DNA of 28,104 nucleotides from an uncultured archaeon (lineage in GTDB: Archaea > Thermoplasmatota > Penumbrarchaeia > JASLWR01), in assembly GCA_964430885.1 (NCBI GenBank), contig CAYSHM010000018.1, positions 1-28,104 on the forward strand, read 5' to 3'. Of this stretch, positions 1 to 28,104 are shown in pieces. Position numbers and translations under genes: made by a program. Position 1 is the stretch's first letter. The number at the start of each line of letters is the position of its first letter. The notes under the pieces are model-generated. The model made no database searches, was not told the DNA's origin, and saw nothing but the letters and a program-made list of their open reading frames with translations.

Positions 1-44
1 TGTTTTACCATATTTCAGGGCTTAAAGTACATATAGTTGACTTC

Positions 45-95
45 TTATAACGCCTTTATCTGCGATTTGGATAAATTCAGGTAAAGGCGTTATGG
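45..95. repeat. Inverted repeat / attC-like hairpin with AAC...GTT ends, 25 bp past the integrase stop
   Basis: Arm 47-62 ATAACGCCTTTATCTG and arm 78-93 CAGGTAAAGGCGTTAT are 15/16 complementary. An inner stem GATTT/AAATT closes a GGAT loop and leaves one unpaired C at 63. The inverted repeat is certain; a recombination-site role is inference. Confidence 0.7.
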
Positions 96-120
96 GAGGT
101 TGGCCCGCTGCGCTTTGGAG

Positions 121-1278: not shown

Positions 1279-1708
1279 TATATTACCTCTTACTTTATTG
1301 CGATATATTATTTTATAAAATCAATTGACATTTCTATTAAAAGTAATTAATAATATATAAACGGTAAGTAGGGAGGTTGGTGAAACAAAATGATAGCATA
1401 GTTTAATTAATCAATTATTAATTAAATGGATTTTCGAATAATAGGATTTAGGAACGTTTTTTATCCGAAGAACATTTTCGGGAAGTTATTTTGGAAGATA
1501 CTTTGCTCCCTTTTGGTTGATAGGCTATAATGTGGCAGTATTGATTCAAAGGCATTATATATCTAAAAATAAACCTGTTAAAGAAAAATCTATGTATCAA
1601 GGCGGCTTTGTCAAATATTATCATATTTGATTTATGATTTGAGACATAGAAATTTTAAGATGAATTGGTAAGCGAGAGACTCACTCAAGCGGATAGGAAG
1701 GTGGAAGA

Positions 1709-9800: not shown

Positions 9801-10341
9801 AGTCGTCCTCCAGGGTCTCCACGGAAGAATGGGCTATAACGAATGCCACCTCGTCGATATGCAGGGGTTCCAGGTCGGCGATGTCGAGTATCATTTCGGC
9901 GAAAAGGGAGCGGGATCCCGGTGAGAGGCGGAGGAACTTGTGTGTGAGGTTCTCCCTCAGCCATTGGGGAGTGGCATCCAGAGCCTCGCGGCATTCGGGA
10001 GGGAGCCTGCGGGTCAGGTCCTCGGTTCGGAGATAGTTATCGGTGAAATGGATGAAGAAATCCTCTCCGGGCTCTAGTAGAACGCGCTCCTGTATTGTAT
10101 CCACCAGGACCCGGTCCGGCTCTTCGGGTTCGGGTGGTTCCGTGGTGGAGGTGTTTCTTGTTTGGGTGTCGGTGGGTGAACAGGAGTCGGTAAATGATTT
10201 CGCTGTGAACGGTCTTGCCAGGGTCACCGCTGGGGAGACCAGCATTACGGGGAGGACAGTCAGCATTATTAGGAGAACGGTCAGGCATAGCGCGGTCTTC
10301 ATGGCCTTTTGTGAATTGGAAAAATATTTTCTATTGTTCAT
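6829..10341 (-). CDS. Secreted, C-terminally membrane-anchored transglutaminase-superfamily (PNGase-like) protein with about five Ig-like repeats
   Basis: N-terminal signal. Cys-His-Asp core GRCGEY...EDHVWNEF...RWIHWD. Repeats of the form G.A.D...I..L.I.ID...G.H.I...A.D.AG. C-terminal TM IAVLAAAFIMIIAGVGIAV followed by SKRN. Confidence 0.85.
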   Translation of the reverse strand: MNNRKYFSNSQKAMKTALCLTVLLIMLTVLPVMLVSPAVTLARPFTAKSFTDSCSPTDTQTRNTSTTEPPEPEEPDRVLVDTIQERVLLEPGEDFFIHFTDNYLRTEDLTRRLPPECREALDATPQWLRENLTHKFLRLSPGSRSLFAEMILDIADLEPLHIDEVAFVIAHSSVETLEDDYFFPELIPHNARLIYDIAPELPYVNITEKGDHTTLTYRLVDGESLTLPRDIYYWYVVHPDLSDELPTYVDPEYDYTSQPPFDRNYGTPPPVGKYWRDYFYYHNDTGYPLLKDRLSTVSTMDEAIGAFNGWIGGSMSFTSNQERPVQPVRIYAKHIGRCGEYQDMRAAAARTGLVPTTCTLNSAEDHVWNEFWNKRWIHWDGAVDRPMMYENGWGKTISSVWNTRGDGHIWPVTPKYTAHCTYNATVLDSDGLPVDGALVRVSTENFYNPDLLTTTTWGSTDHTGTVSIPLGDNRNYWSAANSDTLGEDPVYGTTSIVEGSEADAVYNHTFRLPRAADALIVNPMEVAPDLTRPYEFEISYNVASSLVLSDNVYTGDKGDLFVNTGNIDLFLTDPMNYNLYSGNLPFSAFHSSTRTPGESLSMELSQGDYFTVLSNAFSQTAAKIVEINISVYSRVNIEFDQPVDGQAFSKGGLIQVSGGAFCHKDIDSVEIEFDGNGIQLPAEDRSSPEEPSYSYWALDMGTANMELGAHEIRARAYSGPAYADTWTTFKLVDLDPPAVTINPSVSNTDYYQGQSIPLSGTAEDNEEVTSLILVVIDAQQGPQAPLDITGYLFDGIWTYSLSGLLPGEHSIKVTAGDGAGNTAYKAADLTVIEGNPPTITITAPSSGTIIKKGNTVEFTGTARDDSGIQSLSFSINAGFETDITYSLDNNGAFSHIWDTDAAPEGPLTISIKALDPSGNHASESLELIVDAEEPALSFGFAEHKLAYSYLDPIILTGTAADDWELSELTLYIDDIPTADLTSEPDSRTPLGNWTYYLDISSLTPGTHYIRITAKDTAGHEISQELEFTADTGAPELTMDPIEEDRETPILIGESILITGNLEDDTGISNLTITIDGVPYSLTPKAGQWKHRLQTSSMKAGRHEITVTAEDLAGHTSTQRVFMDLLSSETADETPSEDGSSFSGTSVMIAVLAAAFIMIIAGVGIAVSKRN

Positions 10342-10465
10342 TTTATCGCCGGATTTTACAGTATGATCTTTGCAGCAACAAGTGCAATTTCAGTGTAACA
10401 AGCGTTAAGATATAGAATTATCTTCTGAAATGTATCATTTTGATGTTTGGTTGTTCTTACAGGTC

Positions 10466-13400
10466 CTATCCTCTGATAACCACTCTCTCGCCGCAGTGAG
10501 GACATGCCGCTGCCGCAGGGAACTGCTTCAGCATCACCGCAAAGGCGCCGGCGCAGCTGGGGCACTTTACCCTGACCTTCTTGGGAGCGTCCTCCTCAGG
10601 CTGTTTTCGGGGTTTTGGTTCCTCTCTGGGTCTGGACGACTGTGTCGGAGCAGGGGGCTCAGGACCCTCGTAATTGGAGAGTATCCTCTTTATATGCTTG
10701 GCGTTCTTGATACTGAGTTCATACTTGCCTGAATCAAGGGAGTCCTTGGAAACCTTCAAAAGTGCCTCCACCTTCTTTGCCGTAGGTGTCTCAATCTTGT
10801 CCTTCTTTGTATCGTACTCGTCACGGGCGTCATCAAGTACCATACCGGCTATCTTCTGGCGTCTGCTGTTGATCTTGGCCTTGAGCTTCACAATGACATT
10901 CTTCAGTATGGTGATGGCCTTGTCGATGTCCTCCTCCTCCAGAAGTCTGCCCGCCTTTGTATTGAGCTTGAGCTCGGCATCGATATCCGCTGCAAGGTCC
11001 CGGGCGGCCTCCACATACTTGTCCACTGTCTCCACCAGCTTGTATGCCTCGTCCCTATTGGACATTTTGTCCCGCAGCTCGGTGATCATCTTCTCCATGA
11101 CCTCTATCTTTTCCTCCATCTCCTTCCATTCCGAACCGGAATAGTGGGACTGAAGGTCCTTTATGGCGCTTCTCATGACCTTGAGGTACTTGTCTGAGAA
11201 ATAGGGTTTCTTCTTTATCTCCAGGTAGAAGGCCTCCACTGATTTGAGCCGGGCGAAGAGATGGTTGCCTATGATACGGTAATAAGCGCTGTCCAGGCTC
11301 TTCTTCAGGTTCAGGCTGCCTATATATGCCTTCATGAACCTCTCCTGGTCTAGGTGGTCCAGAATGGCCGTGAACTTGGATTCGAGCTGGGAGGAATCAC
11401 GTCTGCTGTTTCTGAGAACATTCAGCTTGGGGTCCATCTCGGATATGTTGTTCTCTGCCCTGACCTTGAGCTGCGCGTTGAGATCGCTCTTCATGAAATG
11501 CCTCATCTCGGTCATTGTATCAGTGGCCTGGCCGTAGTAACCCTTCTCGATCTGCTCCCTGCCCTTTGAAAGGAGATTCTTGCCCTCGGTCGTATCTATA
11601 TCCAGACCCTCATATCCCAGGAGGCGCTCTTCCAGCTTTGCCAGCTTGGACTTATAGAGGTCCTTCTCGTTGGACGATCTCTGCAGTTCCAGGACCTCGG
11701 TGAACTCCTTCAGTTTCCGATTGATCAGTTCCAGATCCCCGGCGGAGGATGCGTCCAGTGCATCGTTGAGTATCTCCTCCAGATCAGGGTAGTCCTTTCC
11801 GGTATTATCCTTCAGTTCGTCTAGGTCCTCGAATGCCATGTCCAGCTCGTCCTGGGCTTCCTCCAGTTTTCTTACCTCAAGGGCCTTATTTATGGTCTTC
11901 TCCAAGCTCTTCAGAATCTCAACAGCCTTCTTGAAATCGCCCTTGGATTCACGCTCGTTTACATCTTCCCAGGTCTTCTGGATGTCCTCTATCTTCACCC
12001 TGTCCTCCTGGGCAAGCTGCATTAGAGACATTACTTCCTCCTTCTTCTTTTCAAGCTGACTTCCCATGACCGAAGCTATCATATCCTCCGCCTGTTTGTG
12101 AAGCTCCTCCAGCTTCTTTTCCGCATTTTCCTGATCCTCTCCTGCCATAAGGCCGTTTATCTCCGAGAGACGCATCTCCACCACATCCATGTCCAATCCG
12201 AGGTCACGTCCCTCCAGTATCATGGACTCCACCTCCTCGTATATTATATCCATCCTCTTTGATCCTGCCTCCCTGCGGGCCTTTAGGCAAATCTCCACGG
12301 CTTCCCTGGCAAGCTCCTTGGCCTCCTCGAACTCCTTCTTTTCCAGCGTATCCCTGGCTCGTATCAGCAGGGCTTCGCTGTTGAAATCCTCAAGATCCAG
12401 CTCTTTGTTCCGCTCCAGTTCCTTTTCCGCCTTGCCAATCACCATTTGGGTCTCAATGGGCATACGTTCCTCAGTGAGCCTGTCCAGGTTGGTGCTGAGC
12501 TCCGGCAGGGTATCCACGCATTGCTCGTAATCGTTATCCCTGATGTTTTTCTGGCATTGTTCCATCTGCAGCTGTATCACCTTGATGGGATCCCTGAGCT
12601 GTCTTATAGCGTTATGTCCAAGGTCCCTTATGACCTCCAGTTCTGCCCTGAATCGGTCCTTGAGCTCCTTGAGCTCATCCTTTCCTCGCCCCTCGATATG
12701 AGTTTTGTAAAGCTCCTTAAGTTGGGTCTTCATGTCAAGAAGCAGGTCTATTGCCGGGTCCAGGTTTCCGGCCTCATGCTCCCTGTCTGCCTTTGCCCTC
12801 ATGCTGACCAGGGCCCCAGGTGTATCAACTCCCCGTTTCTCGTTCCGGGCCAGCTGCTGGTAGATCTCCTCGTAGAGTGACGAAAACTGTTTCTCCTTAT
12901 CCATGCGGATCTCCAGCTCGGCCTTTAGCACCGCAAATCTCTCCATTTCCGCTCTGGCCCCTGCCTCTTCCCCGCTGTCCACCATGACCTCCAGCTCGTC
13001 AAGGTCCCTGAGCATCTCCTCCTTCCGGGCATCGGAAATGAAGGGCTTGTTTCGGGCAAGTTCAACGAACTCGGATATGTCCTTCACCTCGGCCTCCAGC
13101 CTTAAAAGGCGCAGGTCCCTTAAGGTGTCCAGGGTCTGCTGGAATTTCTCGGAAGAAAAGTGGTCTCCGGCCTCATCCAGGAGCTCGCGGGCCCTGTCAG
13201 TGTCCAGGCCCAGCCTCGCCATCTCATTGATCACTTCTGGTGCCCTCTCAAGGTCAGCCTGGGCGTTCTGCTTCATATGGTCCCTGTTGATCCGGGCCAA
13301 TATGTTCCTAGCCTCAATACATTTATCCCGGCAGTCGGCGAACCGCTCCTCCCTGTAATCAGCCCTTGCCTCTGTAAGGATGGGATCGGCTCCGCTACCG

Positions 13401-16400
13401 CTGTAGATATCCTCCCCGAGGTTCTCCCTGATCTTCCCAGCCATATCCTCCACCTCACGGAGGATGGCGGTAGCGCCGGAAAGCTCGTCCTCCCTCCTGA
13501 GACCGTCAATGTATTCCATGAGACTGTCGGCCTTTTCGCTGGCAGACTGGAACTTCTTCTTGTTCAGTTGGGTGTTTATATCGTACTGTTTCTGCCTCAG
13601 GTCCTTGATGACATGCCTCTCCTCGCACTGATCGATGAACTCCTCCGCCTTTGCCAACAAGCCCTCCACCTTCAGGGTGTAGTAGCTCTCCATCCTCAGC
13701 TCCAGGGCCCCCTCCACCTTGATCATGTTCTCCACGGCGGAGGAATAGTTGCCGTTCTTGAAGGCCATCCTTATATCCATGAACGCGTCCTTCTGGTCTG
13801 ACAGGTCTATACCCTTGAGCTGAAGGTCCCTGAAGGATGCCCGAAGGGCCGTGACCTTCTCCTTCGCCACGTCCTTGAGGCTTGTCTCCGCCTCGTCCAG
13901 TGATTCCAGGATGGTGGCCTGAAGCTCGAAGAGGGGGTCAAGTTCCCCTGCCTCGATATGCTCCCTGGCGCTGTTCAGGAGCTCCTCCGCTATGGGAGCG
14001 GAGAATCCGGCCCTGCCAACGTCCTGCAGCCTGATCTCCAGATCGCCGAACACAGCAGGGAAAACCTCCTTTAGAAGTATTGTCCTGAATCCCTTCATGG
14101 ATCCGCCGAACTCCGCTAGGAAGGCCTCCGAGTTGTCCAATTCATTCTCCTTCATGGCTATATCGGCGTTGGTAAGGCTGTTGCCCATGGACAGCAGTTT
14201 GGAGCTCTCCTCGGGATACTGCTCCTTGAGGTCCTCCATCTCCCTCTTGAGTGTATCGTAGATCCGCAGAGCCTCGGTTATCCTTTGAGCAAGCTCATCC
14301 TTTCTGGCCTTAGTGAGTTTGCTTTTCAGCTCTTCCACCACCTCCCTGAGCTCCAGCGTTGTCGAATAGTATGCGCCATCCCGGGCTGACTGGCTGAACA
14401 GGTCCCGGGATTTATCCTCGCTATCGGTATCAAGCTCGGCCTTCACCGCCTCGTCAAGCAGAACACCGAACTCCTCCGTCTCCTCCTGGTACATGGGCTG
14501 GTAATGGCGGTTCAGAAGGTCGGTCAGGTCTGCCCTGAACTCCTGGGTTCCCCGTGAGACCTCCTCGTAATCCTTTGCCTCTAGGTGTAGGTCCAGCTCT
14601 TCCAGGCGCTCCAGGTACTCCGAGAGGTCCAGTTCCTCCTCTTCTGCCGTCATGAGGAGCTCCCTGCATCTCTTGATATTGTCAGAGGCTCTCTGATACT
14701 TGGTCTGCACTATGGCCTTTTTCAGCTCGGCCAGGATATCCTCGGCCTGGTCGTGGGCCTGTTTGAACATATCTTCCTCGAACTTGAGGCTGGCCCCGCC
14801 GTAGCTCTCGCTGAAATAGTCGAGATCCACATCGGGTTCGCCGTCCAGTATCCCGCTGATCTCAGCCAGGAGCTCAGAGGCGCCATCCTTGAAGAATCGG
14901 TCCCTGTTGACAGTGCACAGCTCCTTGGCCCTGACCGCCAGCTCGGATGCCCTGGAGAATATGTTGTTATTGAAACTGTCCTGAGCCTCCTCCATCATCC
15001 CATCGGCCTCTGGGTTCTGTATACCGATCTCCTTCAGCTCGTCCAGCATGGCCCGGCCTTCCACCAGGAGGGTGAAAACTCCCTCCATGAAGGGTTTCTG
15101 CTTCTCCAGGAGCACATCGTTGAGCTGGTCCAGCAGCCGGAGGGCCAGGATATAATCCTTCTCCTCGGCGGCATTCTCGGCACGTTCCATTACCCCGGTT
15201 TCCTCGGTGAGGTCGGTCTCATGGGCCTTCACTTCCTCGTAGAGGGACCGGACCCTGGGCAGATTCACATCCAGCAGCTTCTTCCCCTGATCCTGCCTCA
15301 CATGCTCCACTATACCCTCGGTGGCCTCCTTGTACTTCTCAAGGGCCCGGGCATCGCCCTTCCTGGCGGCCTCAACGGCCAGGGCACAGGAGTCCCTGAT
15401 ATTGGCGACATTCATGCCCAGGGATTCCCACTGGTCTATGTTCTTCACGAACTCGTCCCTGCCCCGTATATATTCACTGCAGAACCGGTTCTTCTGCTCC
15501 AGGTCTATCATGTTCTTCAGATTTTTGATGGCGTCCTCTATGAACTCCAGGGCCGACTCGTCATCGCCCTCCTCCATATCAGCATCGGCATAGTTAAGAA
15601 GGGACTCCTCGGAAACACTGTCCAGTCCCAGATCCTCGGCATCCTGGATAAGGTCCCTGGCCTCGGCCATTTTCTCCTTGGCCTTGTTCTTCAGGAACTC
15701 GGTCTTCCTTGAGGTGTAGATCTTCTGGGCCCTCTCGCACAGCACCTGGGTCTCGCCGTAATCCCCTTCCTCAAATAGACCATAGGAGCCGTAGACTATC
15801 TTGTCAACGGGATGGATGTTCATGCCCAGCTCCTGACCTTCATCCATGAGCTTCTGGAGCTCGTCAAGCCTTTCCTGGGCGCACTGTTTATCGTAATCCT
15901 GTTTGATCTTCCGGGCAAGGGCGACGGCCTTCTCAGCCAGCTCACGGGATGCAAGGAAATCCTCCTCGTCGAACTTCACCCGGGCTTCGGCAAGTCCCGC
16001 CGAGACCTCTTCACGGTCCAGACCTATCTCTTCAAGGGTGGACAGAAGCTGTTCTGTGAGGTCCATGGCCTTCTGGGCCTGGTCCCTGCGGTATTCGGTC
16101 CTTATATCAAGTAGAGAGGTCTGCAGCATATCAACGGTCTGGCATCCTCCCAGGAAGTCCTTGTTCTGGATATGATTCCGGATCCCGTTGAACTCCCTCT
16201 TCTCCCGGTCCAGGTCCAGTCTCAGCCTGTTGAGCTCCACGAAGAGCTTCTTTGCGCTGTCTATACGGCCCCTGAGCTCATGCTTGGCCGTTTCCTGGCC
16301 AATATGCTGAACCATTTTCTTGACAGACCCCACCTGTTCCTGGGCCTTCTCCAGATCTGTTTCCTCCACAAGATGCAGACCCGCCTCTATGGCTTCCTCG

Positions 16401-19400
16401 ATCTCATCGGCTTCGATACGGGCCTTTCTGATCTCGGACACATTCTCCCTGAATCCTTCCAGGGCCTCTCCGGCGAGTTTAAGCTGGAATGTGCGCTCGT
16501 GGTCCCCGAGGTTGGTCTCATAGCTCCCGAATAGACGGTCCACTTCCTGGTACTCCTTGTTCTTTATGGCGTCCTCGGCAAGGTCCAGCATCTCGCAGAG
16601 GTCCTGGTACTCACCGCCGGTCCTGTCAAGGAACTTCTCCAGTGAAAGTCTGCATTCCTCTAGATCGCCTTCCTTGAGCTCGGTCTTCTTGGCATCTATG
16701 GTATTATGAAGCTGATCCCGGGCATTATCAATGAGCTCTATCGCCTGGTGGTACTCCAGGGTCTCTCTGAGCTGGTCGGATTGTGTAAGAGATCCGTCTG
16801 CCGATTCAGTATCGAGTTCGTACTCTTCGGCCTCGGTCATCAGCTTCCTGAGAATTTCCTGCTTTTCCGCCAGGATCTCGTCCAGCTTCCGGTCCACACG
16901 GGTCTTGATATCTGAATACAGTTCACGGAGGTCCATGAGCGACTTGTATATCTCGCCCTCCTGGAATACATTCTTGGTCTCCATGAAGCGCTCCTCAAGG
17001 TCGCTAGTGTCAACCTCCAGGCCCTGGCCTTTGACCAGCATCTCGTTCCAATCGTCGGTCTCGGCGGAGTATAGTTTTCGAATCTCCTTCTCACGGAGGG
17101 CCCTGTATTCCCTGAGGGCGGAATCCGCCGTTTCCTGGGCTTCCTGGAACCTGTCCTCTTCCAGCTCCTGGCCGGCCTTGTCCATAATATCCTCCATGGG
17201 ACTTATGTCCAGAGAGAACTCCTCGGCTCCCTTCATCTCTTCCCTTACAGAATGAAAGAGCTCCTGGGTACATTTCCAGTCATAGGCCGCCTTGATGGAC
17301 AATCCCTCCTCCTCGGCCTTACCGGCAGCGGTCTCTGACTCAACGTAGTCCCCGTCGGAGAACCGGGATTCGGCATCCAGAAGGAAAGCCTCCACGGAAG
17401 CTGTGTCCAACCCAAGTTCCCTGGTGACCTCCAGTATTTCATTGGCCTTATCCATGGCGACTTCCGCCTGACCCCGGAGGTAATCAGTCTCGATCTCCTC
17501 CATGGTCACTGCGAGCTCATCCACTATGGCGCATCCTTCCACATTCCTGTTCTCGGAAAGGGCGCCCTCGGCAGATGCGAGTATGGTCTCCTGTTCCGAC
17601 AGGTCCAGCTCGGTGTCCTCAAGGCGCTGGAAATATTCCCTGACAGCTTCAAGACGCCGGTTGAGCTCGTCCTTGGCGGTCTCGTTCCTGAGTTCTTTTA
17701 GAAGTTCATCCACTTCCGTCAGGGTCTCCCCGGCTCCTTCAAGGTCGTCTTCCTCTATCTGCTGGAGGGCCTGTGTGATAGATTCTGATATGTGTTCGGT
17801 AGAGATGTCGACATTGTCGATGGGTTCAAGTTCGCCGGACCTCACCTCCAGGGTTTTCTTTGTCTCATCAAGATTGAAATCCCTGAGATGTCTTTCCCTC
17901 TTGGTCGCGAACTCAGCAAAAAGGGTATCGGCGCCGTCATAATCCTTGTCGGTGATGGAGCTCTTGGCGGTATCCAGCATTTCCTGCAGGTCCTGGTACT
18001 CCGCATCGGTCTCGGCCATTATCTCCGAGAGAGAGGAGGTGCACTCCTTGAGCTGGTCGGACCTCATCTCGGTCATCCGGTCATCCAGCGAGCCCTTGAG
18101 AGCTTCCGCACGGTCTGTGAGAAGCTGAATAGCAGGTTCAAGTTCGCCCTCCCCGCGCATTTCGTCAGCCTTCTCCAGGTCTCCCGCTGCGGGATCGATA
18201 TACTGGGCGGACAGCTCTATGCATTCGCCCATCTCCATGAGCTCCTCGATCTCCTCCCAGTGCTCGGACAGAAGCTCCAGAAGCCGGTTCTCGATCTTGC
18301 CCTCCAGAGCCTCGGTGAGTATCAGGGCGGTATCCAGGGCCTCGACGTATTCCTCGTTCTTGAAAACGACACTGAGCTCCCTAAGGCTGGAGGCTTCCCC
18401 TGTGATATCGATTTCCAGCCCCTTGGCCTTCCCCATGAGCTCCTTCAGGATCTGGAACTGGTCCCTGCATGCGTTCTTGAAATGTATCTTCTTGGTCTCT
18501 GCGATCATGTCATATACTTCACGGGAAAGCTTCAGGGCTGCAATGTGATCATCATTCGCTATAAATTCCGTAACCTTTGCCAGTTCCCTCTCCTCGGCAG
18601 CGAGGTCAACACCCAGATTGGCAGTTTCATCAAAGTAGGCTTTTGAAGAAACAAGCTGCTCCTGGGCCAGCGGTTTGGCCTGGACCATGTTGGCGTTCTC
18701 GATCATTTCCTTTATCCAATCTATCCTCTTCTTGATGCTCTCCAGCTCGCTCTCGGATATGTCGTCCTTCATGGTTACCAGGGTTATCTTCTCCCTGACA
18801 ACCTCCAGCAGTTCATCGCCGGATTTTATATCGACCTCCACTTCCCTGACCCTGTCAAGGCCGTCCTCCAGACCATCCATCATGTTCCCGTACTCCTCGA
18901 CCTGGTGGAGACGGTCCTGGAGATGCAGCTCCTCCTTGAGCTCCTCTTTGAGAGAGTCAACCTCGGAGAATTCCCCCTTCATGAGGACCTTTGCGGACCT
19001 GTTCAGCAGATAGCGGGCATCGGATAACTTGCGTCCAGTGGTTTTCTCAAGTTCCCTGAGCTCCCTGCTCATATCCTCCAGGTCCTGTTTTCTCATGGTG
19101 GTGTTCCTGTCATAGATGGCCTTTTCGGCATTCTTGTTGACCTTCTTCATGAGCTCGATGGCTTTCTCAAGTTCACCATCCTCTGACAGCTGGTGAGCCT
19201 CGGCGGCGGAATCCATGATACTGGAAAGGTCAGCTTCAATCGGTCGGGCCTGGTCCTCCATGGTGCCCAGATCCTCTTTCATCTGTTGGATCATATCGCT
19301 CATAACACTATTAAGGGCGGATCCCATATCCTTCAATACCGGGGCTGAACCGGTGTAGGCTTCTCTGAACTCTTCCTTTTCCATGAGCTCCTTCAGCCCG

Positions 19401-20200: not shown

Positions 20201-20775
20201 TTTTACCAGCTCATTTTTGTTTATAGACAATTGTAAGTAGGGTTTTGGTGCAGTTAGTGGGATCCTTTGTGCAATCCAAATGGTCAGAGTATTATTCTCC
20301 AAACCTGGATAGGGCTAGAGGATATTCCTCTGCCAAGTGCTTGTACTGTATATTTCAGGCGATACAGCCCTTGAGCTTCCCGGAGTATTTACCCGAATGA
20401 AGCAGGGCGTCATCTCCGCCGGCCGATGGTGGAAAGGCCAGATATGGAGTTAGCAGGTTCGCATGGGTCTAGAACTCCTCCTTCGAACCCGGTGCGGTCT
20501 GCAGATATTTATCGGGTGACCCTTTGACATTCCTAGGGTTTTCTAAAGCTTTCATATGGTATTATATAGGGCATTATCTAGGGTAATCAAACATACCGTA
20601 TGCGAGGTAAAATCACCCTTTCAAAATCTGATATATATTTATTGATAATTAAATATTCCTATGATTGAAAATAATAAATATATAAGGATTTTTTCAAGAA
20701 AATGCAAATATGCTAGGAATTTTCAGAAGGTTTTGGGAGAATTCATACAGCTTAGAGGAACGTTCACACTGTCCC

Positions 20776-20800
20776 AAAGAAAAAAAAGGCAAAATAGAAA
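20776..20800 (-). terminator. Putative archaeal oligo-T terminator
   Basis: The minus strand reads TTTCTATTTTGCC followed by a T8 run, about 35-60 bp past the stop of the 20836 gene. Confidence 0.4.
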
Positions 20801-20835
20801 GGATAATTACACCGGTTATATCCCAATATTAACTT

Positions 20836-23800
20836 CTACATTGTCTTTATCAGAGCCCGTTTTCCGCAGTAGGGACAGGCCACTGCAGCAGGGACCGTCT
20901 CCACAAGGGCGGCGAAGGGTTTGCGGCATGAGGGACATGCTATCTTCATCCTCATGGGGCCTTTCCTCTCCTTCTTGGGTTCGGGTCTCCTGTCCGGTTC
21001 CGTCTTGAGCCTTACACCGTCAAGGAACTTCTCAAGCTTTCTGGATGATCGGATAGATTCCTCGAACTTCTCCTCGTTTATACCCTGTTTGGATTCCAGC
21101 AGAAGCTCCTGGGCGAAATGAATATCGGACTGGTCCATGCGGTCCCGTTTCTCGGTGAACTCGTACTCGGCTTCCTCCAGGACCCCCAATGAAATTTCCC
21201 GGCGCCTTTTGTTGATCTTCTTCTTCACCTTCACAAGAATATTGCGCAGCTGTGTCATGGCCCTCTCGCCCTTGTCCTCTGAAATGAGCTTCTCGGCGGT
21301 CTTCTTGACCTTAAGCTCATCATCGATATCAGCGGCGAGGTTCTCGGCGGTCTCGATGGCCTTCTCAACGTTCCTGAGCATCTCCTGGACCTTGTCCTGG
21401 TCCACCATCCTTCCCCGCAGCTCCTCCATGACCTTGTCCATTGCCGCGAACTTCTCCTCCATGGCCGCCCATTCGGCGTTGGAATAATGGGACTGCAAGT
21501 CCTCCAGGGCTCTCTTCATGATCTCCTTGTACTTGTCTGAGAAGTAGGGTTTGGACCTGACCTTGAGATAGAAATCCTCCACCTCCTTCAATCGAGAATA
21601 GAGGCGCTCCCTCTTGGCGCTGTTGAGAATCCCGTAGATCTCCTCCTTCAATTTTGTACTCTTGATAAAGGCGACCATGAACTTCCTGTTGTCCATAGAG
21701 GTAAGGAGATCGGTGAAATCGTTCTCAAAACGGTCAAGGACTATCTCGCTTGACCTGAGCTTCTCCATCATGGTATTGAGCTCGTCCAGGTTGTCCTGGG
21801 CTCTGACCTGAACCTGAGCAGGAAGGTCCTCGTCCAGATACTTGTTGAGCTCGTGAATGTCATCCTCGGCCTTGCCGAACTCGCCCTCATTGACGAAACC
21901 CTTTATCCTGTATAGGAGCTCCTTACCCACGGAGACATCCATGTTAAGACCCTCGAAGGTCAGCATCCTGTCCTCATGGTCGTCGACTATCTCCTTGTAG
22001 CGGTCCTTTGCAAGGTCCAGGGATTTGGTCTGTCTCATATGGTAGAATAGCTCTAACTGCTCCTCGGTGATATCATACTCCCCGTTGGTGAAATGGTCAA
22101 GCACCCGCTGAAGTATCTCCTCCAGGTCGGAAAAGGCCTCACCGCTCTCAACCTTGAACTGCTCGTAGGACTTGAAGGCGGAATCCAGTTTATCCTTGAC
22201 CTGGTCCCGGTTCTTGGTGGATATCTTCCTGCTTATCTCCTCCTCGATACCATCGAGCTTGGCCATTGCATCGCTATAGTTCTTGGCCTCCTCCAGGGCG
22301 GCAATCGATCCCATTTCCGCTCTCAACGCCTCAATGTCAATATTCTCTTCTCCAGCCAGGTCAATAAGGGATTGGATCTCGGCCTTCCTGGTCTCAAGTC
22401 TGCTGAGCTGATGGTGCCCGATAATATCCATTGCAAGTGCTCTCGTATCCTCTATGAGTGCACGGGCCTCCTGAAGCACCCTCTCTTCCAAGAGGTGCTC
22501 CACCCTTGGGAGCTGGAGGTCCACCGGGTCCATGTCCAGACCCAGTTCTTCACCCTGGGCAACCAAGAGCTCTGTTGTCTTCAGCATCTCCTTGATCATT
22601 CCGCTCTCGGCGCTCATCTCGGCCTCCAGAGCCGACTCGTAGGCTATCTTGGCAAACCGGAGGGTGTTGTCAAAATTACCCTCCTCGTAGGCGTTGTTGG
22701 CCTTGAATAGGTAAGCCTCACTGTTGAAAACGTCCATACCAAGGTCCTTGGACCTCTTGACCTGGTCCCTGGCCTTGGACAGGAGTTCGCCGGCCTCCAG
22801 CTGGCTGCGGTCGTCCCTGAATGATGCAAATAGCTCCTGGGCCTGGTCCACAAAAGCTATGCACTCCCTGAAATTACCCTCTTCAAAAGCCTTTCGGGCG
22901 TATGCGGTCTTGGATTCCAGAGATTCTATGGTCTCGGCCATACCGGTCTTGGTGTCCTCATCCAACATTCCGAACTCCAGCTTGATCTTGCCTTCCAGGG
23001 TTATTAACCTCTCCTCTGCGGTTTCGCTCATCTGATCGTTGTACTTAGCTCCCAGTATCCGGGTGACATTCCTCAAGAGCTCAATGGCTATGTCCAGCTT
23101 GTTGTTCTCTCTGTGATTGATCGCCATACCAAGGTCCCTCTCTATCTCCTCGGGGACCTCTATGCCGTTGTCCCTGCAGAGGGTCATTAGAAGATCGGTC
23201 TCCTTATAGAGCTGATGGTACTCCCTCATCTGGGTCACCTTGAGCCTGGTAGCCTCTACCAATTCGGAGCACTCTCTTGTGGTTTCCATGGCTGCAATGT
23301 ACTGTTTCTCGGAAAGGGTCAGCTCCAGTGTATCCAGGAGCATTCTGATCTCCTCGCCCTCAATTGTAACGTCCTGATCGGATACGCTGATCACCTCAAG
23401 GAAGTTAAGGAAACCTCCCCGCTTGAACTCTATGTACTTCATACGGAAGGCATTCAGGTTATCCATGGCAGTTTCCATGTTGCCTGACTGGTAATCCGAG
23501 CGGGCTAGTTCTAGAAGCTGGACCATCTCGTCAAAGGGGGCCACCTCTTCGGGCTCCTCCTGTATGAGCACCCCGCAGTGCTCAAGCCCTCTCTCCACCC
23601 TTATCTTGAGGTTCTTGTCGCTGAGTACGGACAGACCTTCGGCCATATGCTTGAGTATCTCCATGGTACCCTGGTAATCCTGTTTCTGGAATGAATCCTT
23701 GGCCTGGGTGAGCTGGTTGTAAATATCCTGGACCTCCAGTTCCGCCGGACCTATGCTCGCCTCCAGTTCCTTGACCTGGGCATCGGTGTTCTTCAGGTCC

Positions 23801-26800
23801 ACCTCCGCCTTGGTCTTCAGAGACGATATCTTCATCTGTTCAATATGAGTATGCAGTTCTTTAGCCAGCATATAGGCGTTCTCGAATCGGTCCCTCTCGT
23901 ACCAGCGTTTGGTATCGTACAGACGCCGCCTGATCTCCTTGACCTGGGAACGCTCGCTTATGCATGACATTAGCTCCTGGGCATCGGCCATGGTGGACTC
24001 CACGAAATTCTTCTGGAATGCGCCCTTCTCCTCCTCCAGTGTTACCTGGGTGGTGAGCATGTTCTGGGCGGCCAGCATGTAATCCCTCTCCTTGATGGCG
24101 TTCTGAACAGAGGTGAACTGCTCCCTTGCCCTTGTGAGGTCAATACCTCTGGCATTCAGGTCACGGAAGCTTGTCTTGAGAACTACCAATCTCTGCCTGA
24201 TTATCTCTTTGATACGGGATTCGGCATCGTTCAGAATGTCCTCTATGTGATGCTGGACCTCTATGTAGCTGTCGAGATCACCCTCCTCAATATGCTCCTG
24301 TCCGCTGATAATAAGCTCACGGGCCAGTGCGGTGGTGAGTCCCAGGTCCTCCAGGACCTTCACCTTAACGGAGTACTTTTCGGCAATTAGCGGATATATT
24401 TTTTCCTTCAGAAGCTCCCACTGTTCACGGGATATGCTCTTGAACTCGTCCATGGATTCCCCTGCAAGCTGGTACTGGTCCTCGGTCATTTGGTCCTCTG
24501 CCGAGGTAATGAGGATCTGAAGCTTCTCTATGTCAAGCGGTGTGAAATCGAAATTCTCCAGAATGGTCTCCGCATTCCCGATGTACCGGATATGCCTCTT
24601 CACCCTGGTCCTGGCATCGGACATGTCCTTCAGTATGTCTGATCTGGTCTTGTCCACCATGCGTCCGTTAAGATCGTCAGCCAGGGAATTCACCTCGAGC
24701 TTGGCTTCATAATACCGCCCTTCCCCGGAAAGAACCTTGACATCCATGAGATTCTGGGGCACATCAGATACATCAATCCCCTGCTCCTTGACCTTCTGGA
24801 TTACGGTTGTCAGGTTGCCCAGGTCCAGCTGGTAGTCCTCCTCGGAGACGCCGTTGAGGAACAACAGCAGCCGAGCCCTGAGGTCGGCAAGGGTTTCCGA
24901 AGTACCTTCCAGGTCACCTTCCTGCAGGAGCTGTTTGGCCATAACGAAACTTTCCAGCTCCGATGTTATGTCCAGCTCCTTTCCAGCCCCTGCTTCCAGG
25001 AGAGATGATATATCTTCGATATCGCCTTCCAATCCTGTTCTCCTGTGCTTTCTGAGTTCATCAGCCACGTATGCCTTGGCCTCCTCTGCCACTGACAGGG
25101 CGTTGTAGTAGCGCCTTCTCTTGAGAAGGGTGCTCACCTTGCCGATGAAGGTGCTCACCTTCCATTTGTTGATCTGAATACCCTTTTGTGAACATTCATC
25201 CTGAAGTGCTCTCACCTCATCCAAGACCTCGTCGGTCCTGTTTCTGGTGAAGTTCTTCTTGGCATTGATGGCAATCTCTTTTGCTTCCCTGAGCTTACGC
25301 TCCGCTCTTGAATATAAACCCTCGTTGTAGAACTCCTGTGCATCCTCCATGATATTGGCAAGTGCTGTTATGTCGAGTCCCACCTCCACTGTTTCCGTTA
25401 TGAAACCCCGGGTCTCCTCTATGAGCTTCTGCACCCTCAATATGAATGGTTCCTGAAGCTGGGTCAGATGGGATGAGAGGTCGCGGTTGATCTTCAATGC
25501 AAGAACATAATCCTCGTTCTTGTTGGCATCGTTTATCATTACAAGTTGTTCCTTGTTGGAAGAAAGGTCGTTGCCCTGGGCCATGACCTCTTTGAAGAGC
25601 TTGGCAGTATCCTTGGTCCTCTGGTTCGACAGTTCCTTGGCCTGGAGTGCCTTTGCCACTCCCACCAGCTCAACCATTCTCTTTCTGTACTGCTTGAAGT
25701 TGCGTATATCCTGCTCCTCAGCGTTCTTCAGGGCTAGATGGAACTGCCCCCTTGCGGCAGACATGTCCAAACCCAGTTCCTTCATCTCATCGATCTCAGC
25801 CTTGATATCGTCCTTCTCCGAGAGGAACTCCGATATGACGCTCACCGCTTTCTGGTGTGTGATCTTTGCATTTAGAGACTGGACCACTGCATTGACAAGA
25901 CCCAGTGATTCGCTGTATTTCTCCGCTGTAAGAACAAGTTTGGCATTATCAAAGGTGGACCTTTCGGAACTGACATCAAGACCCATCTGCTGAGCATTGA
26001 TGAACAGGATGTCGGCTTGGGCCAAAAGTTCAGTTATCCGGGCCCGCATTATCACAGCTCTCTTGTCCCTGAATCCGTCCTCGGCGCCCCTTATCAGCTT
26101 CGTTCCTTCATCCAGTTTTCCCTCTTCAATAAGCACTCTGGCACTGGCAAGCTTTTCACGCATCTGAACAGTATCTATCCCCAGCTCAGAATTATTATCC
26201 ATGAAACGGCCCACTTCGTCTATCTTAGCGAGTGCGGTCTCGGCCTCGTGCTGGTCCCTCACCCCGCTGCAGATATCCAGTGACTGACAGAGCATTTCCC
26301 GGATGGATGCTAGGTCCTCTGAACTATCCAGGCCCTCTTTTGCCTTGAGAGCAAGATCCCGCGCCTCAGAAACATCAAGCTCCTTGTCTGACAGGTCCTC
26401 AAAGGTAGCCTCGGCCTCCTTGAGCATCTTGGAAAGCTCGCTTCTCTCATATTCCTCCTCCTTGGCCCCAAAGCGGGCAATTATCTCCACTGTACCCTCA
26501 CTAGCTGTTAGGTAGTCACCTTCCTTGACTTTCATAAGTATATTTTTAAAGAGGTCTTTCTCTTCTGTTACATCCTGTCCTTTCTCCTTGAGGGACGCAA
26601 ACATCTCCTTGGAGCGCCTGGCATTGGAAAGGGCTAGCTCCTTGGCCTTTGTTGAAAGTGTCCTATCGAGTTCCTCACGGGTCCTCTGAAGTGCATCCCG
26701 GACCGCTTCATTGTCTCCACTGGAAAGCTGGTCCTGGCAGTGAGCGGTCAGCTCCTTGAGAACATCATTCATGATGCCGAGGTTAAGAAGCCGTCCAGTC

Positions 26801-28104
26801 TGTTCCCTGATATGGTCCAGGGCTCCCTGGGATTCCTCAAGAGCGAATGAGGATTCAAGCTCTGCCCGGAATCTCTGGAACATCTCGATATGCTCTTCTG
26901 CATTGGGGAAATCGCTCACATCCAGGGCTTGGGATGCATTAAGTAAAAGGGACCTGAGCTTGCTCTGCTCTTCCCCGGTCCTCTCCTCGAATGAGGTAAG
27001 ATCGGCGTCAAGGGCGCTTATTATATCCACCAGCTTTCCTTTCTGCCGGCCAATGCCCTCTGTGATGGCTTCCTCCACTAGGTCTATGTTTTCATTCAGT
27101 ATTCGTACGGACTCCTCATAGCTCCTTCGGTCCATTGCGGGTTCCAACATCGCAAGCACCTGAACTGCGGAATCCACATCCAGTTCCATCTCTTTGGCGC
27201 GGTCCAGAGCATTGCTGAGTATCTCCTTTCTCTCATCAACAAGCTCCCTGTAGCGTTCGGCTATACTGTCCTGAACGGATATCTTCAGATGGGCAAGTTT
27301 TTCCATTGCTTTTTCTTTTTCACCCTGACTGTAATCCATCTTCATCTCTTCCAGTTCCTGATGGAACAAGGTAGGGTCCAGATCCAGTCCAAGGAACTCA
27401 TTGAAGAGAACTTCCAGCTCCTTCAAGGATGCCTCGTACCCACTTCTCTGATGCTTTCCCAGGGCATTTATTATACCTGCCCTCAGTTCACGGGCCTTTT
27501 GGATACCTAGTATGAAGTCCTCCCTTGAACCCTCCTTTATGTGAATTGCTATCTCCTTGAAAAGAGCCATCTCGCCATCGGCGGGCAGACCCTGGCCCCT
27601 GAGTCCACCTATCATTCCCTTTATCTCGACTATCAATTCCCTGGCGATCTCCTTCACCTCGGTTCCGAATATCTCATCCAGGGTAGTGTGAAGGGATTCG
27701 ATGGTATGTTCCAGGCCTATCAGTTGGCCTCTATCAATACTGCTTGAGATGGAAAAAAGATCATTCTCCAGAAGTGCGGTGTCCATGTCTATTCTCTTAA
27801 GGGATTGAATATCCATGTCCAGAGACTCCAGCTCCTCCATGAGCTCCTGGGCGTCGGCCCCCTGCGGCAATTCCGGCTCCTGAAGCGCTTCTTCCTCCGA
27901 CACATCGGGCAGTTGAGGGGGCGGACTGGGGAGGGGAGGCGGACTCAATCCAGGCGGTGTGGGAAGTTCAGGTTCCACGGGTATCGGCTCCTCTTCTGGC
28001 TGCGCCTCCGGCTCTGCGGCCTCGGGTTCTTCATGAACTTCGGGTTCAGCTGCTGCTTCCGGTTCTTCAGCAATTTCAGGCTGCACCTCAGGCTCTGCGG
28101 CCTC
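20836..28104 (-). CDS. Second giant alpha-helical repeat protein (more than 2422 aa, 5'-truncated by the window), paralog of 10466..20200, with C-terminal C4 zinc ribbon
   Basis: The frame stays open to base 28104 (EAAEPE precedes the GTG at 28086). Same repeat of about 66 aa. Shares KPYFSDKY, DLQSHYS, LAADID.ELK, SFRDL..RGIDL/SFRDL..KGIDL and FNSEA.L with the other giant. Ends in CPSC-x16-CPYC. Confidence 0.9.
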   Translation of the reverse strand, partial: EAAEPEVQPEIAEEPEAAAEPEVHEEPEAAEPEAQPEEEPIPVEPELPTPPGLSPPPLPSPPPQLPDVSEEEALQEPELPQGADAQELMEELESLDMDIQSLKRIDMDTALLENDLFSISSSIDRGQLIGLEHTIESLHTTLDEIFGTEVKEIARELIVEIKGMIGGLRGQGLPADGEMALFKEIAIHIKEGSREDFILGIQKARELRAGIINALGKHQRSGYEASLKELEVLFNEFLGLDLDPTLFHQELEEMKMDYSQGEKEKAMEKLAHLKISVQDSIAERYRELVDERKEILSNALDRAKEMELDVDSAVQVLAMLEPAMDRRSYEESVRILNENIDLVEEAITEGIGRQKGKLVDIISALDADLTSFEERTGEEQSKLRSLLLNASQALDVSDFPNAEEHIEMFQRFRAELESSFALEESQGALDHIREQTGRLLNLGIMNDVLKELTAHCQDQLSSGDNEAVRDALQRTREELDRTLSTKAKELALSNARRSKEMFASLKEKGQDVTEEKDLFKNILMKVKEGDYLTASEGTVEIIARFGAKEEEYERSELSKMLKEAEATFEDLSDKELDVSEARDLALKAKEGLDSSEDLASIREMLCQSLDICSGVRDQHEAETALAKIDEVGRFMDNNSELGIDTVQMREKLASARVLIEEGKLDEGTKLIRGAEDGFRDKRAVIMRARITELLAQADILFINAQQMGLDVSSERSTFDNAKLVLTAEKYSESLGLVNAVVQSLNAKITHQKAVSVISEFLSEKDDIKAEIDEMKELGLDMSAARGQFHLALKNAEEQDIRNFKQYRKRMVELVGVAKALQAKELSNQRTKDTAKLFKEVMAQGNDLSSNKEQLVMINDANKNEDYVLALKINRDLSSHLTQLQEPFILRVQKLIEETRGFITETVEVGLDITALANIMEDAQEFYNEGLYSRAERKLREAKEIAINAKKNFTRNRTDEVLDEVRALQDECSQKGIQINKWKVSTFIGKVSTLLKRRRYYNALSVAEEAKAYVADELRKHRRTGLEGDIEDISSLLEAGAGKELDITSELESFVMAKQLLQEGDLEGTSETLADLRARLLLFLNGVSEEDYQLDLGNLTTVIQKVKEQGIDVSDVPQNLMDVKVLSGEGRYYEAKLEVNSLADDLNGRMVDKTRSDILKDMSDARTRVKRHIRYIGNAETILENFDFTPLDIEKLQILITSAEDQMTEDQYQLAGESMDEFKSISREQWELLKEKIYPLIAEKYSVKVKVLEDLGLTTALARELIISGQEHIEEGDLDSYIEVQHHIEDILNDAESRIKEIIRQRLVVLKTSFRDLNARGIDLTRAREQFTSVQNAIKERDYMLAAQNMLTTQVTLEEEKGAFQKNFVESTMADAQELMSCISERSQVKEIRRRLYDTKRWYERDRFENAYMLAKELHTHIEQMKISSLKTKAEVDLKNTDAQVKELEASIGPAELEVQDIYNQLTQAKDSFQKQDYQGTMEILKHMAEGLSVLSDKNLKIRVERGLEHCGVLIQEEPEEVAPFDEMVQLLELARSDYQSGNMETAMDNLNAFRMKYIEFKRGGFLNFLEVISVSDQDVTIEGEEIRMLLDTLELTLSEKQYIAAMETTRECSELVEATRLKVTQMREYHQLYKETDLLMTLCRDNGIEVPEEIERDLGMAINHRENNKLDIAIELLRNVTRILGAKYNDQMSETAEERLITLEGKIKLEFGMLDEDTKTGMAETIESLESKTAYARKAFEEGNFRECIAFVDQAQELFASFRDDRSQLEAGELLSKARDQVKRSKDLGMDVFNSEAYLFKANNAYEEGNFDNTLRFAKIAYESALEAEMSAESGMIKEMLKTTELLVAQGEELGLDMDPVDLQLPRVEHLLEERVLQEARALIEDTRALAMDIIGHHQLSRLETRKAEIQSLIDLAGEENIDIEALRAEMGSIAALEEAKNYSDAMAKLDGIEEEISRKISTKNRDQVKDKLDSAFKSYEQFKVESGEAFSDLEEILQRVLDHFTNGEYDITEEQLELFYHMRQTKSLDLAKDRYKEIVDDHEDRMLTFEGLNMDVSVGKELLYRIKGFVNEGEFGKAEDDIHELNKYLDEDLPAQVQVRAQDNLDELNTMMEKLRSSEIVLDRFENDFTDLLTSMDNRKFMVAFIKSTKLKEEIYGILNSAKRERLYSRLKEVEDFYLKVRSKPYFSDKYKEIMKRALEDLQSHYSNAEWAAMEEKFAAMDKVMEELRGRMVDQDKVQEMLRNVEKAIETAENLAADIDDELKVKKTAEKLISEDKGERAMTQLRNILVKVKKKINKRRREISLGVLEEAEYEFTEKRDRMDQSDIHFAQELLLESKQGINEEKFEESIRSSRKLEKFLDGVRLKTEPDRRPEPKKERKGPMRMKIACPSCRKPFAALVETVPAAVACPYCGKRALIKTM
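27870..28104 (-). repeat. Pro/Glu/Ala-rich repetitive linker with a proline-rich tract
   Basis: EAAEPEVQ / EAAAEPEVH / EAAEPEAQ units, with the DNA repeat GGCTCTGCGGCCTC near 28010 and 28091, followed by PTPPGLSPPPLPSPPPQLP. Confidence 0.8.

Follow-up and report, generated by a model that had tools for sequence, protein, structure and literature searches.

Rod-like scaffolds made of chained three-helix bundles are known from eukaryotes, where spectrin is the example, and from a few bacteria, where EzrA and Ebh have this form. To our knowledge, nothing comparable has been described in archaea. The stretch analyzed here comprises the first 28,104 nucleotides of contig C18 (CAYSHM010000018.1; C18:1-28104) of an uncultured marine archaeon of the Thermoplasmatota and is referred to as the window; the assembly of this genome (G000) amounts to 3.13 Mb in 44 contigs and is 91.6% complete. 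According to the list of open reading frames (ORFs), positions 10466-28104 are filled by two minus-strand frames, A and B, whose products are giant acidic proteins built from a 66-residue helical repeat. With middling confidence, A and B can be read as diverged tandem copies of a giant cytoplasmic structural protein that is restricted to a lineage of uncultured marine Thermoplasmatota. Such a protein would be a long acidic cytoplasmic rod composed of a fixed 29-unit core, a variable N-terminal extension and a tethered zinc ribbon.

The finding is real, and the family is undescribed in the public resources searched, namely Pfam, Foldseek and the accessible part of the literature. A search of the full texts available there returned no published account of such rods; the one preprint found to mention JASLWR01 deals with archaeal microcompartments. 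In uncultured marine Thermoplasmatota, the undescribed 66-residue repeat makes up proteins between 2000 and 7700 residues long.

Two colinear helical-repeat proteins and their relatives

BLASTP aligns A with B in one segment that spans 2228 columns (25.4% identity, 651 bits; Table 1), and an independent genome search recovered the match at E 8.7e-199. By sequence comparison, the two are true paralogs. Seven pairs of landmarks occur in the same order in both proteins at offsets of 543, 539, 536, 539, 539, 539 and 539 residues, and just 17 positions of A are gapped in B when the last 1900 residues of five sequences are aligned. Identity between the two amounts to 12-27% in most units and is highest in the last five full units (Table 1), which contain columns that are invariant in the five-sequence alignment; the terminal ribbon is also highly conserved. 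Because conservation peaks in these five units and in the ribbon, the C-terminal end is taken as the probable functional end of the rods.

An iterated hidden Markov model (HMM) of the repeat unit detects 36 units in A and 33 in B. Successive units are spaced by exactly 66 residues in 21 of 35 cases in A and in 12 of 32 cases in B, the remainder lying mostly 65-70 or about twice 66 residues apart, and a motif scan of the repeats gives spacings of 66, 132-133 and 199. In the aligned units, a hydrophobic helix end leads into an L-G-[LIM]-D-[LVIT] loop; a helix that closes with G-[DN]-[YF] comes next, and a long helix follows. In the predicted unit, 43 residues form the long helix, 5 the loop with the LGLD motif, 15 the return helix and 3 the turn with the G-D-Y motif, which adds up to 66.

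Structure prediction with AlphaFold2 gave a perfectly regular model for a six-unit block of A (residues 784-1179, three-sequence alignment; mean predicted local distance difference test score, pLDDT, 93.6; predicted template modelling score 0.63), in which helices of 43 and 15 residues alternate six times. The same helix pattern was obtained for the last 450 residues with a five-sequence alignment (mean pLDDT 85.5). A MAFFT alignment of thirteen six-unit blocks slipped register, with 845 columns for sequences of about 400 residues, and was left out of folding. In the models, each long helix is predicted to belong to two neighbouring three-helix bundles, which would yield one continuous rod of 40 to 50 small three-helix units per protein. 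If each unit contributed a net advance of about 3-4 nm, a value derived from helix lengths alone, A would measure about 150-190 nm as a straight rod and the 7300-residue relatives 330-440 nm. A rod that ends in a ribbon is very probably the correct anatomy of these proteins.

Database searches with sequences and models returned no known family. Pfam scans of A and B, including the complete B, yielded no family at its cut-off, the best matches below it being YfdX (17 bits versus 26.6) and GST_C_7 (18.8 versus 27); a profile of 55 units reached YfdX at E 0.0014 by summing matches that are individually non-significant. Foldseek searches of the PDB with both models gave no row at E <= 0.001, and the weak rows included EbhA, plectin, beta2-spectrin repeats and EzrA. 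The best VIA-align result (Z 9.9) lies within the background stated for helical models, and its rows are mostly single generic or designed three-helix bundles. In the ESM Atlas, scores of 0.82-0.84 fell below the level at which a match counts as more than a lead, and all rows were hypothetical proteins of Thermoplasmatota. A pattern scan found no Walker A motif in A or B, a crude scan for transmembrane (TM) segments found none (highest 19-residue hydropathy 1.2 in both), and neither protein has a signal peptide. The net charges of the two proteins, -278 and -190, mark them as strongly acidic.

An earlier description of this stretch from the letters alone (the sequence-only reading) had proposed two colinear same-strand paralogs made of helical units of about 66 residues, with landmarks in one order, no signal peptide, TM segment or Walker A motif, a zinc ribbon at the end of each protein and an origin in an old duplication; it had likened the proteins to spectrin by analogy and not necessarily by homology. 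All of this is borne out, as is the view of them as non-enzymatic, cytoplasmic and all-helical; the ribbons (CPxC...CPxCG at both C-termini) sit on a flexible linker. The reading would have been contradicted by a known enzymatic or export domain in the missing N-terminus of B, and a Pfam scan of the recovered N-terminus shows no known domain.

Internal repeats were found by a masked chunk search; a whole-protein self-BLASTP gives the diagonal only. A contains a seven-unit duplication at an offset of 463 residues (7.02 units; 31-33% identity, E down to 7e-33) that B does not have (Table 1). Its two copies are more alike than A and B are, and the duplication accounts for most of the roughly 540 residues by which A exceeds B. 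A super-repeat of about five units is found in a relative of 5000 residues, P0005. Because block duplications occur in both A and P0005, family proteins can be said, from these alignments, to change length by whole blocks of units.

A HMMER search with the last 1099 residues of A against 1.84 billion representative sequences returned 21 proteins at E <= 0.001, nine of them at E <= 1e-10. The top match, P0006, is a 515-residue fragment that is 99% identical to A; the next four, P0007 (7274 residues), P0008 (7686), P0004 (B itself) and P0009 (2009), all end in the same ribbon. Residues 1352-3243 of A align with 5332-7272 of P0007, and residues 1583-3243 with 337-2007 of P0009. Exact spacing by 66 residues is found in 66 of 92 cases in P0007 and 63 of 97 in P0008. 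A, B, P0007, P0008 and P0009 form a ribbon-ended subfamily defined by the colinear C-terminal core (about 1900 residues), the Pro/Glu linker behind it and the signature K-[VM]-[KR]-x-x-CPxC...PA...CPxC. The C-terminal core is fixed in length family-wide at about 1900 residues, and the overall lengths of ribbon-ended members range from 2009 to 7686 residues. P0010 (3840 residues) and P0005 are rods of the 66-residue unit without this ribbon, the latter having a different group of four CxxC pairs.

A search of 40 related genomes placed the subfamily more precisely. Each of the three further genomes of f1, the family to which G000 belongs, has a single full-length match to the last 600 residues of A; the open frames measure 7295, 7294 and 7028 residues, the last being cut by a contig end. 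In the 37 genomes outside f1, matches go no further than the ribbon or generic units, and a scan of genome contigs for rods returned only two relatives that had already been found. A gene for a tRNA-splicing endonuclease lies divergently upstream of B and, in two relatives of family f1 (G001 and G003), upstream of the single giant gene; no other neighbour is conserved at the rod locus of these two genomes. The repeat itself reaches further. At E <= 1e-6, a six-unit profile finds it in 40 of the 151 genomes sampled across the phylum, among them all 17 genomes of family f7 (frames of about 1750-1800 residues), and in none from several other families, such as f11 (0 of 15) and f31 (0 of 15). At least seven units are present in nine ORFs of G000, one of which (C5:98352-105326, 2325 residues) has 14 units by the HMM of the A/B family (E 5.8e-46) and a C-terminus without a zinc ribbon. 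On these sequence criteria, A and B belong to a ribbon-ended subfamily that is separate from the C5 rod and, among the 40 genomes, complete only in family f1.

Further repeat proteins were seen in passing. In G000, a 3161-residue frame of the repeat (C22:43708-53190, 28 unit matches) runs off a contig end, and repeat-bearing frames of 3134-3198 residues are present in five other genomes of the phylum. The 66-residue unit is present in each of three adjacent same-strand frames of 2129, 872 and 1512 residues (C17:38914-52296). A scaffold gap lies in the first frame, and the third has a different double-CxxC ribbon at its end. The group may be another rod cluster or a single gene that assembly has broken. 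The 7000-residue orthologs start with a motif of about 45 residues (..WLT..QI...IQ.MMA.GN..I) that is missing from A and B. It is found on two small proteins of G000 (C6:103139-103726 and C10:78747-79043), one of which (BLASTP E 2e-11 to P0008) continues with a segment resembling a ribbon-helix-helix (RHH) domain, followed by an acidic linker and then a zinc ribbon.

A maximum-likelihood tree computed for seven members from their last 1080 residues groups A with B against the other five at 100/100 support. Because of this grouping and the presence of one gene in each of the three relatives, the simplest account is that a single ancestral gene was duplicated in tandem in this genus and that the copies then diverged fast. 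This origin is likely; the alternative would be an older duplication with loss elsewhere.

The sequence-only reading had explained the common length register by co-assembly, and had expected homologs to occur in pairs. On this explanation, A and B would be two obligate subunits, joined lengthwise or through their C-terminal tips in the manner of the alpha and beta chains of spectrin. Several observations agree with it: the 17 gap positions in 1900 residues, landmark offsets that stay close to 539, and two intact genes that are each touched by metatranscriptome contigs. When the C-terminal 261 residues of the two proteins were predicted as a complex, the score was 0.35 (best of three controls 0.01), with a contact agreement between runs of at least 49% and a partner pLDDT of at least 79. 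Of 157 solved complexes, 116 reached the mark set for this prediction, as did 2 of 215 mismatched pairs; with scores of 0.60 or below, only 18 of the 157 did so, together with both passing mismatches. By the tool's own statement, a pass at 0.35 is more often wrong than right unless the pairing was probable in advance. Proteins closely related to a true partner pass too, and an ancestral habit of forming homodimers would give paralogs the same result. The heterodimer proposed at the C-terminal ends passed the mark, and the pass lends it weak support.

The family data tell against such pairing. The locus holds a single gene in all three other genomes of the family, where the expected pairs are not found, and the ribbon-ended homologs vary widely in length. 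The register is as poor in gaps against these single-copy orthologs as between A and B, which means that it can be explained without pairing and reflects the repeat architecture of a core common to the whole family. A is 548 residues longer than B and carries the extra seven-unit duplication, so that the rods are not length-matched overall; moreover, the genes lie 635 bp apart and each has a TATA-like box of its own. Obligate pairing is accordingly considered unlikely.

The terminal zinc ribbon and possible roles of the rods

The ribbon offers another way to approach function. The pattern CPxC-x16-CPxC and a PA motif are invariant in all five aligned sequences, and in A and B a glycine follows the second knuckle. 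Four short strands bearing both CPxC knuckles are predicted for the ribbon of A (pLDDT 77-83). Two CxxC knuckles on hairpins, about 15-20 residues apart, are the generic layout of a zinc ribbon, and zinc binding is predicted only. With four cysteines in the terminal 42 residues, the eight ligands of a RING cross-brace are not available. The segment matched no specific Pfam family above its gathering cut-off; Zn_ribbon_8 (PF09723) reached 20.7-23 bits versus 34.4, Zn_ribbon_4 (PF13717) 16.4-21.3 versus 30.3 and Prok-RING_1 13.9 versus 29.1. The linker in front of the ribbon of A has a pLDDT below 50 at model residues 385-409, and its length differs among orthologs.

An HMM built from seven rod ribbons only was run against 15,245 frames of G000 and detected 11 further ORFs (E 7.8e-10 to 1.5e-4). 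All 11 matches end within 8 residues of the protein C-terminus, and ten of the ORFs encode proteins of 1271-1781 residues. A crude hydropathy scan placed a TM segment near the C-terminus of all ten, about 150-330 residues from the end, and an N-terminal hydrophobic segment in eight. In the five tails inspected, the TM segment is directly followed by Arg/Lys and then by a Pro/Gln-rich tail with short conserved motifs, and the four ectodomains scanned contain PKD, LTD, NIDO, Kelch or Laminin_G domains. Judging from these features, at least ten type-I surface proteins encoded in G000 also have the ribbon of the rods at the end of their cytoplasmic tails. The TM topology would place this ribbon in the cytoplasm on a flexible Pro-rich tether, an arrangement like that at the rod ends. 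Beyond this genome, ribbon-only matches end frames of about 1060-1090 residues in many genomes of the class, and one ribbon-only match was found in a scan of metagenome contigs.

A set of paralogous type-I surface proteins in G000 is encoded at C16:29571-50413 (five tandem genes), C34:9372-18423, C4:224364-232651 and C5:133096-138438. Their tails carry motifs such as ...LP.FST..G.QDLN...LPPAP and LDSVF and have a zinc ribbon at the end. No description of this tail architecture was found.

It is rather probable that the rods act as passive scaffolds or tethers. The conserved last units together with the ribbon would form a docking end, and the ribbon might bind a partner of the surface-protein tails or the tails themselves, which would place the rod under the membrane. 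This membrane-proximal docking through the shared ribbon is a tentative proposal, less likely true than false. Were it true, it would offer a testable candidate for an archaeal membrane skeleton as well as a new protein-docking module, and a shared cytoplasmic ribbon is in any case a sharper, more testable hypothesis than co-assembling twin rods. A still bolder and unlikely extension is that rods and ribbon-tailed surface proteins form a cortical skeleton under the membrane of a wall-less archaeon. Rods of hundreds of nanometres would then be fastened to dozens of type-I surface proteins at their cytoplasmic tails, either ribbon to ribbon or via one hub protein; the fixed-length 29-unit core would define the mesh size, and the N-terminal extension, being variable, would adjust the reach.

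Many zinc ribbons bind nucleic acids, and the rods could instead be chromosome tethers, the ribbon binding DNA or RNA while the rod spaces or bridges elements of the nucleoid. The start motif of the long orthologs fits this idea in so far as one of the two small proteins that share it has a weak RHH_1 match (17.3 bits versus 20.5). However, A and B do not have the motif, their strong negative charge is unfavourable, and the same type of ribbon sits on cytoplasmic tails of surface proteins, where nucleic-acid binding is improbable. A role as nucleoid tether is therefore given little credence.

Even less can be said for the rods as scaffolds or substrates of an adjacent ubiquitin-like modification system. 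A gene of E2 type (UQ_con, E 7.7e-14) and a double-JAB gene do lie 1.8-4.2 kb upstream of B, on the far side of the endonuclease gene. Neither is present at the rod locus of G001 or G003, where the ORFs after the endonuclease look TrkA- and TrkH-like by eye from their N-terminal sequences, and A and B end in a four-cysteine ribbon that is not a RING. Such a role is very improbable. Finally, the notion that the ORFs are fast-evolving, functionless low-complexity expansions that stay open by chance, which the long branches of A and B, the great variation of lengths in the family and the 215 stop-to-stop frames of at least 1000 residues in the genome might suggest, is hardly credible in view of frames of 2000 to 7700 codons kept in several genomes, a strict 66-residue period with a nearly gap-free core, invariant ribbon cysteines and a fold predicted at high confidence.

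Several points weigh against the reading of A and B as tandem copies of a cytoplasmic rod with a docking end. Function, location and zinc binding are deduced from sequence and models. The predicted folds were computed from very shallow alignments of five and three sequences, the straightness and the rise per unit do not come from coordinates, and a curvature of the EzrA type is possible. The ribbon is short (about 35 residues) and belongs to no specific Pfam family, and small zinc ribbons can converge. Rod ribbons have CPxC knuckles and most surface-tail ribbons CHxC, and the two may be sister groups with different partners. Gene context names no partner, since only the tRNA endonuclease is conserved nearby. 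The tree is unrooted, A and B have its longest branches (1.14 and 1.05 versus 0.10-0.48), and the program flags long-branch attraction. The RNA support consists of assembled contigs from one library, in which DNA carry-over is possible. Whatever its function, the family has a strict period and a very confident fold, and so offers structural work and protein design a clean new repeat.

Gene models, expression and neighbourhood

The frame of gene A is listed as 10466..20302 on the minus strand, with 3278 residues counted from a TTG codon, and its stop codon occupies 10466-10468. The likely start is the ATG at 20200 rather than the TTG at 20302. A TATA-like sequence, TCTATAAAC, lies on the minus strand about 20 nt upstream of this ATG (Table 1), and, because this is the usual spacing in archaea, gene A is probably transcribed from a promoter of its own. 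Gene B leaves the window within a tandem low-complexity stretch rich in Pro, Glu and Ala, in which a run of N starts at C18:28105. The scaffold gap (C18:28105-28204) has flanks that repeat each other. Beyond it, the frame remains open up to an ATG at C18:29061, which again has a TATA-like box about 20 nt upstream. Through the N run the frame amounts to 2741 residues, 45 more than in P0004, a gap-free and near-identical copy of B in the protein database with 2696 residues. The N-terminus recovered in this way is a head of about three units on an acidic Pro/Glu/Ala tether of about 110 residues.

Table 1. Coordinates of genes and features in the window
Feature	Coordinates	Strand	Description
Gene A	10466..20200	-	3244 aa from ATG at 20200; about 49 units of 66 aa, linker, zinc ribbon
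Zinc ribbon of A, last 42 aa	10469..10594	-	Four cysteines; putative, from ribbon HMM, alignment and model
Colinear core of A, residues 1051-3243	10472..17050	-	BLASTP segment to B
Linker of A, Pro/Glu/Lys-rich	10583..10675	-	Predicted disordered
Best-conserved five units, A 2797-3126	10823..11812	-	30-47% identity to B; hold the DLEEIL, KPYFSDKY and LAADID landmarks
Seven-unit internal duplication of A, second copy, residues 1053-1495	15716..17044	-	Masked chunk search
Seven-unit internal duplication of A, first copy, residues 587-1032	17105..18442	-	Masked chunk search
A-B spacer	20201..20835	.	635 bp, AT-rich, from B stop to A start; TATA-like box at 20219-20227 (-)
Gene B, window part	20836..28104	-	Residues 275-2696 of 2696; 2422 aa, 5' end open
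Zinc ribbon of B, C-terminal	20839..20964	-	Four cysteines; putative, from alignment, Pfam scan and ribbon HMM
Colinear core of B, residues 508-2694	20845..27405	-	BLASTP segment to A
Acidic Pro/Glu/Ala low-complexity linker of B, window part	27850..28104	-	Scaffold gap falls within the linker; tethers N-terminal head of about 3 units

Seven contigs of 157-275 nt in one metatranscriptome library, produced by the study that also supplied the DNA, match the two genes at 99% identity or more, four in A, two in B and one across the stop codon of B. They give a hint of expression, being assembled contigs without strand information in which carry-over of DNA is possible. No metatranscriptome contig falls on positions 9000-10466, and such a hole proves nothing.

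Directly downstream of A, a gene at 6829-10341 (-) encodes a 1170-residue surface protein with an N-terminal hydrophobic segment, a C-terminal membrane anchor, a weak match to the transglutaminase core and several Ig-like domains of the Big_7 and Big_13 type. It was considered as a partner of the rods and rejected, as it is not found beside the ortholog in G001 or G003. Upstream of B, the E2-type and double-JAB/MPN genes (C18:30909-33293; L009:2706-5090) adjoin the tRNA-splicing endonuclease gene, and the stretch that contains them holds no ubiquitin or E1 gene; as part of a rod system these neighbours were likewise rejected, the pair being absent from the locus in G001 and G003. At the other end of the window, a tyrosine recombinase (Phage_integrase, E 6.7e-41) is encoded at 121-1278 (-) within a region of low G+C content (positions 1-3000). 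The G+C content is 0.37-0.41 at the recombinase, versus 0.49-0.58 across most of the remaining window and 0.47-0.48 around the A-B spacer, and the region may be the edge of an integrated element.

Giant frames are frequent in this genome. If all of its stop-to-stop frames of at least 1000 residues were genes, they would make up about 32% of the 3.13-Mb assembly; 35 of them have at least 2000 residues, and many of the large ones end in acidic, Pro-rich or zinc-ribbon tails.

Comparison with described rod systems

Among proteins with tetratricopeptide (TPR) and pentatricopeptide (PPR) repeats, the 55-unit profile matched designer PPR and consensus TPR chains, with summed E values of 3.3e-11 to 6e-6. 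All these matches cover that part of the unit which comprises the return helix, the turn and the next helix, and no stretch is individually significant. The period of TPR and PPR is 34-35 residues versus 66 here, the predicted helices of 43 and 15 residues form no two-helix solenoid, and A and B have no Pfam TPR or PPR match at E <= 0.01.

The Ebh/Embp proteins of staphylococci with their FIVAR-GA modules (PDB 2dgj) are likewise giant, with up to about 10,000 residues, and string numerous short helical-bundle modules together into a rod. However, they are secreted, anchored in the wall or membrane and built from a double module of 126 residues, and they share no sequence similarity with A or B. 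The Foldseek match is weak (E 1.2, TM score 0.37 on the target).

EzrA of Firmicutes (PDB 4uxv and 4uy3) is a prokaryotic cytoplasmic protein with spectrin-like three-helix repeats. It is the sole long solved chain that aligns over most of a model, at a background-level VIA-align Z of 8.3 over 368 residues with a root-mean-square deviation of 24 Å, a value that means either a different overall shape or a match in topology only. EzrA has 564 residues and an N-terminal membrane anchor, whereas A and B have no anchor and are five to six times longer.

A further comparison is with the spectrin repeats of spectrin, alpha-actinin, dystrophin and plakins (PF00435). Three-helix bundles in which the last helix continues as the first helix of the next bundle are common to these repeats and the predicted rods, as is the overall layout of a cytoplasmic, non-enzymatic rod with binding modules at its ends. 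The continuous linking helix is predicted in both models of A. The spectrin unit is about 106 residues long with helices of similar length, in contrast to the 66-residue unit with its return helix of 15 residues. Neither A nor the complete B matches PF00435 at E <= 0.01 or has an actin-binding, PH or EF-hand domain, and the Foldseek rows for spectrin-type structures are weak (3edv_A, the best spectrin row, E 3.2; 5j1i_B, E 1.8). The likeness to spectrin is thus one of analogy only, as seen from predicted structures. Should the rods nevertheless turn out to form a cortical skeleton, it would couple the organisation of the cell surface to an internal lattice, much like the spectrin of animal cells but as an independent invention.

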